Virus record (IMG/VR): IMGVR_UViG_3300007094_000006
Coordinates: 32,797 to 96,796 of that record
DNA: 64,000 bases
Reading direction: 5' to 3' (one strand)
DNA from: a virus
Translations under genes and position numbers: made by a program
Part shown: piece after piece, positions 14,627-64,000 of the stretch
How the letters are laid out: the number at the start of each line of letters is the position of its first letter
Position numbering within the stretch: the stretch's first letter is position 1
The notes under the pieces: model-generated
Seen by the model: the letters and a program-made list of their open reading frames with translations, nothing else
What the model was told of the DNA's origin: nothing
The model's database searches: none

Positions 14627-15259
14627 ATGGATATTAATTTTCAAAATAAACTACCAGTGGCAATTTCTATTGGTGAGGATGTGGCTAAAAAAACCTTTAG
14701 TTTTGTTCAGCTATCTCGCCTACAGTCTAGTGAAAATATTTTGATGTTTCCTTTACTGGAATCCCAAAATTTAGAGGGTGGTTTCAAAAATATTCTTGAG
14801 CAAGCACGGCAAAAGGTAAACAATGCACTCAATCTAAATTGTCAATTTTCCATATCGGATTTAAAAGACAGAATAACGCAGTCACTATCTAATCAAGGTT
14901 GGAACGAGGTTGATTGGGCAAATTTTTGGGTTAAAGAATTTTCGAGAGCTTTGGGGTATAATCAGTGGTTGAATCGGTCTTGTTATTCATTCTCTATTTT
15001 GGATAAATACCTTAAACAAAAAAACTCGAAGATTATTATTTTGATAGATGGACTAGAAAATATTTTTCCGGATTTAGCCCATGATAACCTTCAACAAACA
15101 GCTTTGAAAGCATTGATAGAAAATTTGCCAAATAAATTGTCCGAAATTCGGCAATCTAATCTAGGATTGATCGTTTTTCTGCATAGAGATTCCATGAGAA
15201 AAACAATTAGGCAAAACTCAGGACAATTTGAAAGCTTGTACAGTGAATACCTTTTTTAG
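14627..15259 (+). CDS. fragment-like P-loop ATPase-related protein (Walker B-like IIILIDGLE, no Walker A)
   Basis: resembles an internal segment of large cyanobacterial ATPases (recognition by recall). Confidence 0.5.
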   Translation: MDINFQNKLPVAISIGEDVAKKTFSFVQLSRLQSSENILMFPLLESQNLEGGFKNILEQARQKVNNALNLNCQFSISDLKDRITQSLSNQGWNEVDWANFWVKEFSRALGYNQWLNRSCYSFSILDKYLKQKNSKIIILIDGLENIFPDLAHDNLQQTALKALIENLPNKLSEIRQSNLGLIVFLHRDSMRKTIRQNSGQFESLYSEYLF

Positions 15260-39617: not shown

Positions 39618-40036
39618 TCTTCAAAAACTTCAGTTAAAATCCATGAAAGCCAAACACTAAATATTGCTTGTATACTACTCATTATCGTAAAATATGTGGC
39701 AAATACGCTTAACGTAGGAATTGGTAATACTCTTAACAGATTGGTTAAACTTATTGCTATTCCGTAAACTCTCGCCACTCCTAACACTATACTGCTTCCT
39801 TCTAATGTAAACTTAATGGTTTGTTTTTGAGCTTCTCCTCTTATAAAATATTTCAAAATAGGTATGCTAAAATTTGTCACAGACGATAATAATAGCAACA
39901 ATGTATATTGAAATTGCTCGTCTGTTAATCCCCCAACTACTCTCACCAAAGTTGTAGTCCAAAATATAAACCCTATGGCTATAAAGTATTCTTTTCCTAA
40001 TTTTTGCTTAATCTCTAGTGTCTGTTTTGGGTTCAC
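39614..40036 (-). CDS. membrane protein (3-4 TM segments)
   Basis: hydrophobic segments. Confidence 0.6.
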   Translation of the reverse strand: MNPKQTLEIKQKLGKEYFIAIGFIFWTTTLVRVVGGLTDEQFQYTLLLLLSSVTNFSIPILKYFIRGEAQKQTIKFTLEGSSIVLGVARVYGIAISLTNLLRVLPIPTLSVFATYFTIMSSIQAIFSVWLSWILTEVFED

Positions 40037-40640
40037 TTATGGCTTTTCCTAAATCTGCTAAAAACCTTTCTAAATACTCCTTAACATTTTGGGCGGAGTC
40101 ACTTTCTAATTGGGTAAATTCTTTGCTTGGAGGTGGTAAAAATGGGTTTCCTGAAGCTATTTTAACGGTTGCTATTAAGTAAAGTTTATAATTATCCTTA
40201 CTTCCCGCTACAAATAAAACCATTCTCACTTTTTCCCACCCTAAAAAACTTATTTGTCTTTTATTATAACCTAAATCCACTAATATTTTGTCATTATTTG
40301 ATTTTAAAATTGTTGACTCTGGATAATTTGTAGAAATGTATGTTATAATATTTTCTAACAGTATTTCTTGGTTCTCTTTATTTAATCCTATTCCTTTCGG
40401 CAGTTTTAACGTTGTACTTTTGGTTATATGCCCATCTAATAAATAAACTAAATTTTCTGTATCCTTTGTAAGTGTTATGTTATCTTTTGTTTTTACATAT
40501 TTTTGAAGGATTACTTTTTCTTTTATATCTATTTTTTCTTCTCCAAAAATTTGAAAATAAATTACTAATATATTTACGCTTATATTTAACACATAAATTA
40601 ATAACTTTTCTCTTACTAACCGTTTTAAAAATCTAATCAT
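40008..40640 (-). CDS. membrane-anchored hypothetical protein
   Basis: N-terminal TM segment; overlaps the downstream gene. Confidence 0.65.
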   Translation of the reverse strand: MIRFLKRLVREKLLIYVLNISVNILVIYFQIFGEEKIDIKEKVILQKYVKTKDNITLTKDTENLVYLLDGHITKSTTLKLPKGIGLNKENQEILLENIITYISTNYPESTILKSNNDKILVDLGYNKRQISFLGWEKVRMVLFVAGSKDNYKLYLIATVKIASGNPFLPPPSKEFTQLESDSAQNVKEYLERFLADLGKAISEPKTDTRD

Positions 40641-47542: not shown

Positions 47543-47788
47543 TTATTGGTTGCCAGCCGAAAGGTAGCATTGAGGGTAGCTTAAGAACCACCGACTTGTC
47601 TGACCATCTTCATAGATTACACAGTCTATGGTTCCAATCTCAAATAAGACACAGAGAACAACTAAGAAGTCTTTTTGGTGTGTCTGTTCAGCATAGCTGT
47701 ATAACGCATCACTGGTTGTTTTTCCTTCAACTACTTGTTTGAATAGGTTGAATAGTTGATTTTGTTGGTTGCGACGTGTAAATTTCAT
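47543..47788 (-). CDS. early hypothetical protein
   Basis: shared promoter and CAGGAG RBS cassette. Confidence 0.7.
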   Translation of the reverse strand: MKFTRRNQQNQLFNLFKQVVEGKTTSDALYSYAEQTHQKDFLVVLCVLFEIGTIDCVIYEDGQTSRWFLSYPQCYLSAGNQ

Positions 47789-56404: not shown

Positions 56405-57175
56405 ATGTCTGAACAATTAATTTTTCAGCGTCTATTAAGTGCTAAACGAGATTGGGCAGTTATGCCTATTCAAAACGGTCACTGTATTTCTGGTGCAGAA
56501 AAAACTATCCAAAAAGCTCTAGAGGCTCGGCACTTAGAATTACCCGTTGGTCAATGGATTAAAGAGTGTGCTAGTCTTGAGAGAAAGTGGTTATCTGACT
56601 ACGGTGTTTTATTACTATCCTCTAATTTTAAAGACGAAAAAAAACATGATTCTCAGTTAAATTATGCCTATTCCAATATCTCTTTAGCTAAATTAACTGA
56701 TAAGCTACAAATTGAGTATGAATCTCGTTCTTTAGTCTCTAAATGGTTAAAAATGGGAGAGAAATATCACCCCGTTTTAGTTACTTGGGTTATCGAACAA
56801 TCTATCTTTTTTCCCGTTCTAACTTTATACCGCCGTCTAGGTGGTACTCAGTTGGCTATGGTTTCCGCAGAAATTAGCAGGGATGAGTCAATTCACGCTA
56901 GAACTAACGGTACTATCGTTAATTTGTTAGGACTTTCTATTCCTTCTGACTTGGATGACCTTAGACAACAAACTATTGAGTGGCTTGTTTCAGACCTTGA
57001 TGAGTCTGGCATTGATGGTAAATACGGTCAATCTCAAAATTATATTGACCAGTCTTTTCAATTACTCCATCAAGGTTCTTATGCTAAGTTTAAAGATACT
57101 TCTTTTGCAGTTATGCCTGGTTTCTTTGAAACACATCGTAGCCATTTACCCAAGTACGGACGTTCTCAAATTTAA
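56405..57175 (+). CDS. nrdB: ribonucleotide reductase beta subunit (ferritin-like)
   Basis: two DExxH motifs (DEKKH, DESIH), LELPVG, IEQSIFF. Confidence 0.78.
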   Translation: MSEQLIFQRLLSAKRDWAVMPIQNGHCISGAEKTIQKALEARHLELPVGQWIKECASLERKWLSDYGVLLLSSNFKDEKKHDSQLNYAYSNISLAKLTDKLQIEYESRSLVSKWLKMGEKYHPVLVTWVIEQSIFFPVLTLYRRLGGTQLAMVSAEISRDESIHARTNGTIVNLLGLSIPSDLDDLRQQTIEWLVSDLDESGIDGKYGQSQNYIDQSFQLLHQGSYAKFKDTSFAVMPGFFETHRSHLPKYGRSQI

Positions 57176-61661: not shown

Positions 61662-61979
61662 CTAATCCTCTAAACCGTTCATACAGTCAAAATAGACAAA
61701 ATCACTATCTTCTTTTAGCCACTCTACCGTGACATTGCCCCCATCTCCCAACTCTATGTCAGCTTCATAGTCTAAGATTTCTTGAAAATCCCCGCTATTC
61801 ATTGCCAACCATCTTTCAACGACTTCTCTTTTTTGTTCTTTGGTCAATTCCTTACCTAATCCTGAGTCTTCTAAATTCCCTACATCATAGGGGGATAACT
61901 CTTTTAACATAGCACAAGTCTGACCGTACCATCCTAATCCCACTATTCTGATTATGCTTTTGATTACCGTGTACTTCAT
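61662..61979 (-). CDS. hypothetical protein
   Basis: GGAGG RBS; cassette-type promoter. Confidence 0.72.
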   Translation of the reverse strand: MKYTVIKSIIRIVGLGWYGQTCAMLKELSPYDVGNLEDSGLGKELTKEQKREVVERWLAMNSGDFQEILDYEADIELGDGGNVTVEWLKEDSDFVYFDCMNGLED

Positions 61980-62202
61980 TTTTGACCTCCTATGGTCACT
62001 TCTCTATGTTCCTATTATGTCACTATTTCTCTCGACTTGTCCCTCGCTAGTGGACACTTTCAGAATTGGCACACATAGCCTATTTAAAATCTATATATAT
62101 ATATCACATTTTTTGACCGTCTTTCACCTTACAGTAGCACGTCTTTTGCTCTCTTTGATAGGGTTAGAAACATCATTTTATCTGTTTTTCCCTGCAATAG
62201 CT

Positions 62203-62395
62203 AGTGGTCTAAGTATTTATACCTATAGTATGCCCGTTCTGTCCCCCTTTTGGAGTGGTCTAAGTATTTTTACTCATAGTATGCCTGTACTAACCCCCTT
62301 TTGGAGTGGTCTAAGTATTTTTACTCATAGTATGCCTGTACTAACCCCTCTTTGCAGTGGTCTAAGTATTTATACTCATAGTCTCCCTGTACTAT
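62203..62395. repeat. 51-bp tandem repeat x4 containing AGTATGCCTGTACT (LexA-box-like)
   Basis: units start at 62203, 62254, 62305, 62356; degenerate copies at ~62560 and ~62759. Confidence 0.85.
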
Positions 62396-62536
62396 CCTTT
62401 TTTCGGCTATCCCCTCGCATGGTGCAAACTTCATTTTTGCCCCTGCATTTATTTTTAACTTTCAGCCTTTTCTACACATGGCGCAAACTTCATTTTCGCC
62501 CCTGCATTTCTTTTGGTTGCATTAGGTTGTGATTTG

Positions 62537-62920
62537 TGTCACAGGTTTTTGGGCTTTTTGTGGTCTAGGTATTTATACTCATGGCATCCCTGTCCTGCCC
62601 TCCCCTTGAAGACTATAGTATTCACGGGTTTTTGGACTTTTTGTTTCAATCCAGTTACGATTGAGTTTCGATTGTATTACATTTGTGTTTCAATCGTGTT
62701 ACATTTGTGTTTCGATTGTATTTCGATTGGTTCACACAGGTTTTTGGACTTTGTGTTTGTGGTCTAGGTATTTATACTCATGGCATCCCTGTCTCTCCCT
62801 ATCCGCCTTCCTGTGTACACTATGGTATTCACAAGTTTTTGGTCTTTTTGTTTCAATCCTGTTACGATTGTGTTACATTTGTATTTCATTTGTGTTACAG
62901 GGTTTTTGGACTTTGTGTGT
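62537..62920. repeat. ~199-bp duplication containing 11-bp-period GT(G/A)TT(A/T)C repeats
   Basis: periodic blocks at ~62643-62730 and ~62850-62900. Confidence 0.75.
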
Positions 62921-62958
62921 GTGACCGCCCCGCCTCCTTGTCTCTTCTATGTCTTCTT

Positions 62959-63244
62959 ATTGAGAATGATTCTCATTATCATTTTTTGTCCTCTTATTGA
63001 GAATGATTCTCATTATCCTTTTTCTGTCTTCTTATTGAGAATGATTCTCATTATCATTTTTTGTCCTCTTATTGAGAATGGTTCTCATTATCCTTTTTCT
63101 GTTATCTTATTGAGAATGATTCTCAATATCCTTTTTCTGTTATCTTATTGAAAATGATTCTCAATATCCTTTTTCTGTTATCTTATTGAAAATGATTCTC
63201 AATATCCTTTTTCTGTTATCTTATTGAAAATGATAATCATTCTC
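62959..63244. promoter_or_regulatory. tandem array of 8 Fur-box-like palindromes (37-38 bp period)
   Basis: TGAGAATGATTCTCA 7-1-7 palindrome; copies at 62959, 62996, 63034, 63071, 63109, 63147, 63185, 63223. Confidence 0.8.
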
Positions 63245-63543
63245 CTTTTTCTCATAATCTTCTCATAATCTTCTCATAATGGTTTTTGGTGAAATTTACC
63301 AATTATGGTGAGTCTGGTCAGCATTGGAGTTTCTCTATGCTGAATACGGTTTGCATTTGGTTTTCTCTATGCTAAGATTGCTAAATCTTCAACATTTAAT
63401 GCTTTTTCGCTCCTATCGAAAAATTTTGAGTCGAAAACCTGTCCGTTTTAGTGGTGGTTAATGAATGGTCTGGCTAAGTTCACCCAGATTTTTCCCAGTC
63501 TAGTACAATTTGTCGACGGTTTGCACCTTTAGTGACACCCAGA

Positions 63544-64000
63544 CTGTACTACTTTTAAAAAATCAATAAAACTCAGTCATATCAAGGGTTTTAATTTTTT
63601 GGTACTAATAAAATGCCATTAAAAAATCAATAAAACCCAGTCACTGTATGGGTTGGGTCTGTTTTGTACTATGTAGTGGGGGGGATAACTTTATTTTTTT
63701 TATCCACCCCTACTTGAATCGTCGCATTAAAAAAACCTCTAAAAAAGCTTTTCGTACCTTTTGCAAGCATTTGGAAGCTACAAGTACCTTTAAGTACCTT
63801 GAAATATTTCCTGCCATATTTTAACTGTTTTTAGATTTTTGAAATGTAACACCCAAGGTGTACTACTTTTAAAAAATCAATAAAACTCAATCATATCAAG
63901 GGTTTTAATTTTTTGACACTATTAAAACACCTTAAAAAATCAATAAAACCCAGTCACCGTATAGGTTAGGTCTGTTTTGTACTATGTAGTAGGGGGGGGG
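63544..64000 (+). repeat. repeat locus 4: two diverged arms(+) at ~63544-63728 and ~63859 to window end
   Basis: same arm motifs with variant spacers; truncated by the window. Confidence 0.9.

Follow-up and report, generated by a model that had tools for sequence, protein, structure and literature searches.

Eight tandem Fur-type boxes in the divergent control region of a Mic1-like Microcystis phage: candidate operators for a host repressor

The window analysed here, 64,000 nucleotides that form the last 64 kb of a 96,796-bp IMG/VR record with a completeness rating of 100%, carries close to its right end an array of eight tandem repeat units, each built around a palindrome of the type bound by Fur repressors. 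Binding of the array by a Fur-family protein is probable, as judged from the motif and from its occurrence in front of iron genes of the host. We favour, with a little less than even confidence, the interpretation that the array consists of recently amplified operators on which host Fur would act in cis, titration of the repressor being a possible by-product. The features on which the analysis rests are collected in Table 1.

Table 1. Features of the window and of related loci (positions in the window unless stated otherwise)
Feature	Position	Strand	Remarks
Homologue of Mic1 'ParA'	14627-15259	+	
Homologue of Mic1 'ParB'	40008-40640	-	
gp73 homologue	47543-47788	-	
Protein annotated NrdB in Mic1	56405-57175	+	no match to Pfam Ribonuc_red_sm or any PDB sequence
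gp50 homologue, first gene of the leftward early block	61662-61979	-	start at 61979, 978 bp left of the array
51-bp x 3.8 repeats with conserved GGTCTAAGTATTTATACT element (minus strand: TATAAAT)	62203-62394	-	
Single copies of the GGTCTAAGTATTTATACT promoter-like module	about 62560-62640 and 62760-62850		
11-bp-period repeats (GTTTCGATTGT / TGTTACATTTG)	62638-62899	.	between the promoter-like modules and the array
Array of eight 37/38-bp units	62957-63246	.	unit: ~25-bp box (TTATTGA[G/A]AATGAT..TCA..) plus 12-13 bp pyrimidine-rich spacer; unit starts 62957, 62994, 63032, 63069, 63107, 63145, 63183, 63221
7-1-7 core, unit 1	62961-62975	.	TGAGAAT-G-ATTCTCA, perfect palindrome
Cores, units 2-4	62998-63012, 63036-63050, 63073-63087		unit 4: one mismatch
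Cores, units 5-8	63111-63125, 63149-63163, 63187-63201, 63225-63239		unit 8: TGAAAAT-G-ATAATCA
Four weak sigma-70-like matches (TTCTCA, 17/18 nt, GATAAT; 9/12)	62975-63116	-	built from neighbouring boxes, reading leftwards
Three tandem 11-bp units TTCTCATAATC, half-box-like	63249-63280	.	directly after unit 8; also in Mic1
Copies of a ~190-bp dispersed arm repeat	63500-64000	.	record end falls within the module; genome continues into record 1-1450
gp48 homologue (HTH)	record 1545-2033, outside the window	+	~2.3 kb right of the array, across the record junction
Example clusters in other IMG/VR contigs (among loci L015-L405)	L357:10736-10946; L356:3477-3680; L286:4754-4990; L328:2654-2804		

Tandem Repeats Finder delimited the array at 62950-63252, with a period of 38 bp and 8.0 copies, or alternatively 75 bp and 4.0 copies, at 92% matches; together with the unit starts, this confirmed the original prediction of eight copies spaced by 37-38 bp and separated by pyrimidine-rich spacers. 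The degenerate 19-mer given in that prediction was matched exactly by seven units and with one mismatch (G for A) by unit 4, and it occurred nowhere else in the 96,796-bp genome, the reversed control also giving no match. The core had further been described as a perfect 7-1-7 palindrome, which holds for units 1-3 and 5, while units 4 and 6-8 each show one to three departures. Units 1 and 3, 2 and 4, and 5, 6 and 7 are identical or nearly so (unit identity 92-100%), and these near-identical units, the 75-bp super-period and the run of three identical units point to a recent tandem duplication of the array.

A coding role was rejected, as the open reading frames at 62683-63000 and 62780-63151 arise where T-rich repeats contain no stop codon; we regard them as repeat artefacts because the 37/38-bp period breaks the frame and copy number differs among relatives. 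The sigma-70-like matches within the array are probably incidental, since their arrangement is not kept in relatives. A role at the RNA level was likewise discarded: the unit hairpins are weak (-4.3 to -7.6 kcal/mol), no terminator-like site was found within the array, and an Rfam search of the array gave no credible match. An iteron-type replication origin was also set aside, the units being dyads and no initiator gene lying alongside.

In the model of Baichoo and Helmann, the Fur site is a 7-1-7 inverted repeat, TGATAAT-N-ATTATCA. The half-site of the array agrees with TGATAAT at six of its seven positions, a G replacing the consensus T once per half-site. All eight units match the E. coli Fur 19-mer GATAATGATAATCATTATC at 15-17 of 19 positions, and the scores originally given for copy 1 (16/19) and copy 8 (17/19) were reproduced, copy 1 reaching 16/19 on the plus strand and 17/19 on the minus strand. 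Across the genome, on both strands, 19 matches of at least 15/19 were counted, against a mean of 1.15 (maximum 4) in shuffled sequence. The FurA consensus of Anabaena is AAATAAATTCTCAATAAAT (PMC4005646), and its central 11 nucleotides, ATTCTCAATAA, occur as five exact copies in the genome, all of them in the array and in five different units. The full Anabaena 19-mer scored only 13/19 against the array, a value that does not discriminate in an AT-rich genome, so that only the 11-nucleotide core of this consensus is informative. Like Fur operators (PMC4005646, PMC8634477), the array thus has AT-rich 7-1-7 dyads with a single central base; in contrast to ordinary Fur operators, it comprises eight tandem copies, is borne by a virus and has no gene within about 1 kb.

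The same motif was then sought in host DNA. Microcystis genomes were reached by way of the Mic1 transposase, which is 98% identical in M. aeruginosa, and searched for the palindrome; a position weight matrix derived from the eight near-identical units was too strict for use on host loci. With at most one mismatch, the palindrome was found at 3-6 sites per Microcystis genome (control, 0-2), and the 19-mer with at most three mismatches at 20 sites (control, 8). One of the host sites, ATTGAGAATAATTCTTATC, lies 45 bp upstream of futA and is kept in three Microcystis species, this gene having been identified through its match to the Synechocystis FutA1 (2PT1, E=6e-128) and FutA2 structures. A second site, AATGCTAATTATTCTCAAT, precedes feoA by 165 bp, without any difference among three Microcystis species. 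In Synechocystis, the fut and feo systems are under Fur control (PMC8634477). The Microcystis host carries three Fur paralogues, and no Fur was found among the proteins encoded by the phage genome. The identity of the boxes as Fur boxes, as originally proposed, is therefore supported by the host futA and feoA sites, by the exact ATTCTCAATAA core in five units and by a phage that lacks a Fur of its own. Neither isiA nor isiB was found in the Microcystis genome examined.

The remaining Microcystis matches fell at the ends of insertion sequences, within genes, and upstream of a sigma factor and of dndE. The insertion sequence ends (L214:1490-1530 and L233:1490-1530, each with an adjoining DDE_3 transposase) carry TTAAGAATTTATTGA[G/A]AATAATT..., which resembles the phage box; such box-like ends in M. 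aeruginosa account for several of the host matches, and an insertion sequence end could there overlap a Fur-like site.

In E. coli K-12, the near-perfect G-variant box was found three times (control, 0), once at 28 bp upstream of gpmA, which we take to be a reported Fur target. The rarity of the G-variant half-site among E. coli chromosomal sites counts against a host-Fur reading. One near-perfect box, TGAGAATCATTCTGA, lies between map and rpsB (NC_000913.3:189583-189597), at a distance of 77 bp upstream from the methionine aminopeptidase start.

The window is collinear with the Microcystis phage Mic1 (MN013189) at 77-96% identity, which identifies its source, at the level of sequence, as a Mic1-like Microcystis siphophage. 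Comparison with Mic1 showed that the record end continues directly into the record start; the record break is therefore arbitrary, and the array lies inside a single gene-free stretch of ~3.5 kb that joins window positions 61980-64000 to record positions 1-1545. To the left of this stretch lie small minus-strand genes homologous to Mic1 gp50-gp66, all assigned to the early cluster E2 by RNA-seq (PMC11237433, Table S1), gp50 included (PMC11237433). To its right, and transcribed away from it, lies the homologue of gp48, a late (L1) gene in Mic1 (PMC11237433). The gp48 homologue encodes a protein of 162 aa with an N-terminal HTH_psq-type motif (E=3.6e-5) followed by long predicted helices, and the gene next after it encodes a capsid cement protein. 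The stretch is thus a divergent control region, with the leftward early (E2) operon on one side and a late HTH gene on the other. The absence of an adjacent gene and the gene-free character of the DNA, both claimed at the outset, are accordingly correct locally and within the array, but the nearest real genes follow at distances of 978 bp (left) and ~2.3 kb (right), and what they enclose is a control region.

The 51-bp repeats between the array and the early genes are candidate tandem early promoters facing those genes. Boxes and conserved promoter-like modules are separate, the latter lying at least 130 bp to the left of the array. The modules at 62560-62640 and 62760-62850, and those at L001:3860-4140, repeat a dyad of type GTGAATACTATAGTATTCAC, followed by CACAGGTTTTTGGACTTT and then by the GGTCTAAGTATTTATACT element, and the arms of the dyad are 8/9 matches to the DnaA box TTATNCACA; the repeated unit looks like a promoter cassette combined with a site for a second regulator. 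The 11-bp-period repeats contain GTTACATTTGTGTTACA-like words (62638-62729 and 62860-62899), which recall the RpaB HLR1 direct repeat, although the spacing differs, being 11 here and 10 for HLR1.

A scan of related genomes, which had been suggested together with the original prediction, recovered the boxes in every relative. Mic1 has five of them, dispersed over 720 bp of the syntenic region, and two of these abut the conserved GGTCTAAGTATTTATACT element, a TATAAAT-containing promoter-like module on the early-gene strand. Four further Mic1-like IMG/VR contigs have exactly two boxes each, 43-44 bp apart and in the same relative place, in surroundings otherwise too diverged for blastn. As the relatives keep the box in two or five copies, the box itself is conserved and the number eight is not.

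Arrays of the same type were found well beyond the Mic1 group. A scan of IMG/VR with the single 15-mer gave mostly single-copy matches, probably due to chance, and was replaced by scans for pairs of exact Fur-type 7-1-7 boxes at a distance of 12-42 bp. The first version of the paired scan gave more than 120 contigs among the matches listed, and a scan with complete counts gave 81 contigs, against 2 for a composition-matched control with everted half-sites. The clusters comprise 2-7 boxes, and those with 3-7 were found in non-coding DNA; the GC content of the contigs is 21-63%. At least two boxes were clustered at 149 loci. For 58 of these a TerL (T4-type Terminase_6 or lambda gpA type) could be recognised in the DNA retrieved, and in all 58 the cluster was situated upstream of where TerL starts, usually at a distance of 0.3-3 kb. 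In several contigs it lay about 200 bp upstream of a small-subunit gene (terS) of the phrog_57/DUF1441 type, the distance often falling between 80 and 300 bp. The placing of the clusters ahead of the terminase operon is, as a comparative finding, new. The open reading frames preceding TerL, which are candidates for TerS, fell into at least six groups unrelated by BLAST, and the only proteins common to these contigs and the phage studied here were TerL, NrdA and a few other unrelated enzymes or small open reading frames. That one and the same motif precedes unrelated proteins over so wide a range of GC content fits a conserved host factor better than it fits converging phage proteins. Several arrays lay less than 250 bp from contig ends, which is suggestive only, as repeats that break assemblies confound this measure. 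A blastn comparison of two array-bearing contigs with cultured phages was uninformative.

Among cultured phages, the T5-like Escherichia phage Lindwurm gave a blastn alignment with the array (74% over 106 nt) in an untranslated stretch. This stretch (L133:2090-2600) contains one perfect TGAGAAT-C-ATTCTCA and about five related boxes in repeat-rich DNA beside early genes, adjoining a pair of TGTGGATAA DnaA boxes and consecutive GTGCAAATCCGACA repeats. By position and order it looks like Repeat Region 3 of T5, the injection-stop region with its DRC repeats and palE-palJ. In T5, this region has DRC direct repeats with the palindromes palE-palJ near DnaA boxes, and the preprint describing the repeats makes no mention of Fur (Davison, bioRxiv 10.1101/866236). 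Against the E. coli Fur 19-mer, the T5 units score no higher than 14-15/19. T5-sized IMG/VR contigs carry the array some 500-560 bp inside one end. The T5 genome has long terminal repeats, enters the cell in two steps and carries its array near the repeat boundary, whereas the TerL of the Mic1 type groups with those of headful packagers. A T5-type injection-stop region was therefore rejected for the phage studied here: the box array is shared, but no end repeats are recorded for this IMG/VR record and the Mic1 TerL is of the headful type. DnaA-like matches in this phage, noticed by eye, reach only 8/9 (GTATTCACA).

If the array indeed consists of cis-acting operators, the ligand would be a Fur-family repressor of the host, most likely FurA, and metal-loaded Fur dimers would occupy each 7-1-7 palindrome, so that ~290 bp of phage DNA would be coated. 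We infer that the selected role would be exerted in cis, Fur occupancy rendering some transaction of the phage DNA dependent on Fur and iron; candidate steps are the firing of flanking promoters, or the onset of late-gene expression and packaging. With eight sites per genome copy, replication would also soak up Fur, the repression exerted by the array itself could be relieved as copy number rises, and host iron genes could be derepressed as a side effect. Two features of its position count against host-Fur operators, namely that the array is about 2.3 kb from the late HTH gene and that it lies at least 130 bp upstream of the promoter-like modules.

A broader proposal, which we consider doubtful, is that Fur-operator arrays are a general DNA-only device of tailed phages, from T5 to cyanophages, serving as a copy-number timer that also derepresses the iron regulon of the host. 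In this speculative model, an abundant host repressor would block late or packaging expression, or DNA entry, while a single genome copy is present, and replication would then titrate the repressor away from the phage DNA. A timer of this kind would reconcile a role in cis with titration, and the expansion to eight copies in this phage would strengthen the titration. Sites for host regulators are known from cyanophages in the form of NtcA and PhoB boxes, which occur singly at promoters of identifiable genes. Like these, the array would let the phage read the nutrient status of the host through a regulator of the host; it differs from them in being eight-fold, in having no adjacent gene and in that the regulator would be Fur.

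Were Fur to bind the arrays, phages of very different hosts would couple a core step of their cycle to the iron sensor of the host by DNA sites alone. Such binding would also give a concrete starting point for testing what the repeats in the T5 injection-stop region do, and would bear on the iron responses of bloom-forming Microcystis and its phages, iron often being limiting for growth in lakes. The positional rule relating the clusters to the terminase (58 of 58) can be checked on cultured phages. No description of phage Fur-box arrays was found in the literature on Fur boxes in conjunction with T5, cyanophages, terminase or phage Fur titration. Phages seem to recruit Fur for a purpose absent from the literature searched.

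Alternatively, the array might be an operator or enhancer array for a dimeric regulator encoded by the phage itself, such as the gp73 or gp48 homologue, its likeness to Fur boxes being coincidence or mimicry. Where palindromes are arrayed in the control region of a phage, their ligand is usually a regulator of the phage itself, the switch from E1 to E2 expression needs a regulator acting in this region, and two proteins present themselves: the gp48 homologue, whose HTH_psq-bearing gene adjoins the region, and the homologue of Mic1 gp73, an immediate-early (E1) product annotated as HTH. Together with gp59, called DNA-binding in the Mic1 RNA-seq paper (PMC11237433), these phage HTH proteins could be the true ligands of the array. 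However, a random AT-rich half-site would reach 6/7 of TGATAAT in well under 1% of cases by our estimate, the same variant marks the futA and feoA promoters of the host, and the palindrome turns up, unchanged, in unrelated phages with which this one has no small protein in common. We therefore judge a phage-encoded ligand unlikely.

The function originally proposed for the array was that of a sponge, without any target in cis, selected to titrate host Fur and so to derepress iron uptake for iron-requiring enzymes of the phage. Multicopy Fur boxes titrate Fur in the FURTA assay, which provides a precedent, and eight good sites per genome copy in gene-free DNA would be well suited to this end; the expansion from two to eight copies is also what selection for titration capacity would be expected to produce. 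Like the sites in FURTA, in datA of E. coli (DnaA) and in incA of P1 (RepA), the array offers many copies of a site that could lower the free pool of a regulator, but datA and incA titrate the initiator of the element itself, whereas the supposed target of the array is a repressor of the host. The Mic1 cycle lasts 10 h with low replacement of host transcripts, which lets host gene expression continue (PMC11237433).

As to the enzymes to be supplied with iron, the phage has an RNR large subunit (PF02867) and possibly a di-iron R2-like protein. The RNR beta subunit named as an example in the original prediction proved weakly supported: in the ESM Atlas the protein annotated NrdB falls, at 0.95, in a neighbourhood of viral 'class I RNR beta' clusters and is also near other di-iron ferritin-like families, but it gave no Pfam or PDB sequence match.

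Against a pure sponge stand the four related contigs with only two boxes and the transcriptional record of Mic1, which has five boxes. The Mic1 RNA-seq paper highlights induction of PKS, CRISPR III-B and nblA (PMC11237433), and the word 'iron' occurs 0 times in its main text (PMC11237433). In its annotated supplement (PMC11237433) iron appears only in the down-regulated petC and chlL; the full table gives locus tags only, so that this is absence of evidence. The strict position upstream of terminase genes in other phages would be needless for a pure decoy, and an equivalent array is kept in T5-like phages, which destroy host DNA early. These phages degrade the DNA of the host within minutes. 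The two-box relatives, a Mic1 paper that does not report iron uptake, the T5-type arrays and the fixed position beside the terminase together favour a role in cis over a sponge, which we rate as rather improbable.

The terminase connection raises a further possibility, namely that the array is an element of the packaging site, of pac or cosB-like type, where the small terminase subunit would bind or where Fur would serve as an accessory host factor. IHF is such an accessory host factor at lambda cosB, and the Fur-type clusters of other phages occupy the same position as cosB and its IHF site, 80-300 bp upstream of terS and 5' of TerL. The invariable position upstream of nearby TerL genes, the proximity of several arrays to contig ends and, in T5-like contigs, to one end of the genome agree with such a role, as does the finding that no TerS has been identified in Mic1 while the next gene to the right encodes the late HTH protein gp48. 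In contrast to lambda, however, TerL lies 57 kb from the array in this genome, no TerS is identified, and the boxes, as Fur-type dyads, are neither IHF nor R sites; a dimeric repressor is a more fitting ligand for perfect dyads than a TerS ring. The gp48 homologue gave no terminase match in Pfam or PHROGs, its structural model was poor (pLDDT 46), and the array is 2.3 kb away from it. The pac sites of P22-like headful packagers usually lie inside terS. Mic1 TerL clusters with those packagers (PMC7156551). A packaging site is, on balance, decidedly unlikely. The gp48 homologue (L362) could nevertheless be a small terminase subunit, and is noted here as a candidate; the Mic1 genome paper names no TerS (PMC7156551).

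A plasmid-type centromere of the sopC or parS kind is highly improbable. F sopC consists of tandem ~40-bp repeats, each with a short dyad, which the array resembles. The Mic1 authors proposed a ParABS system and a lysogenic state (PMC7156551), for which the array could serve the ParA/ParB pair, but their parS candidate is a different palindrome adjoining parA (PMC7156551). In the phage studied here, the array is separated by 48 kb from the ParA homologue and by 23 kb from the ParB homologue; the two do not form an adjacent parA-parB pair, and neither gave a match in Pfam (E<0.01) or PHROG (E<0.001), so that the proposed ParABS rests on weak annotation. A ParABS centromere was rejected on these grounds.

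Functionless slippage, in which a pair of ancestral sites expanded neutrally, agrees with the identity among units, the super-period, the three identical units in a row and the varying copy number, and the range of two to eight copies among relatives could itself be due to neutral slippage; as an account of the array as a whole it is scarcely credible, the box being conserved at this position in all relatives within a region otherwise too diverged for blastn. The control region of Mic1 also contains gp49 (L011:2610-3854), absent from the phage studied here, whose TnpB-like product shares 98% identity with one encoded in a genome of Microcystis aeruginosa (L134); by this identity, gp49 is a recent host-to-phage insertion.
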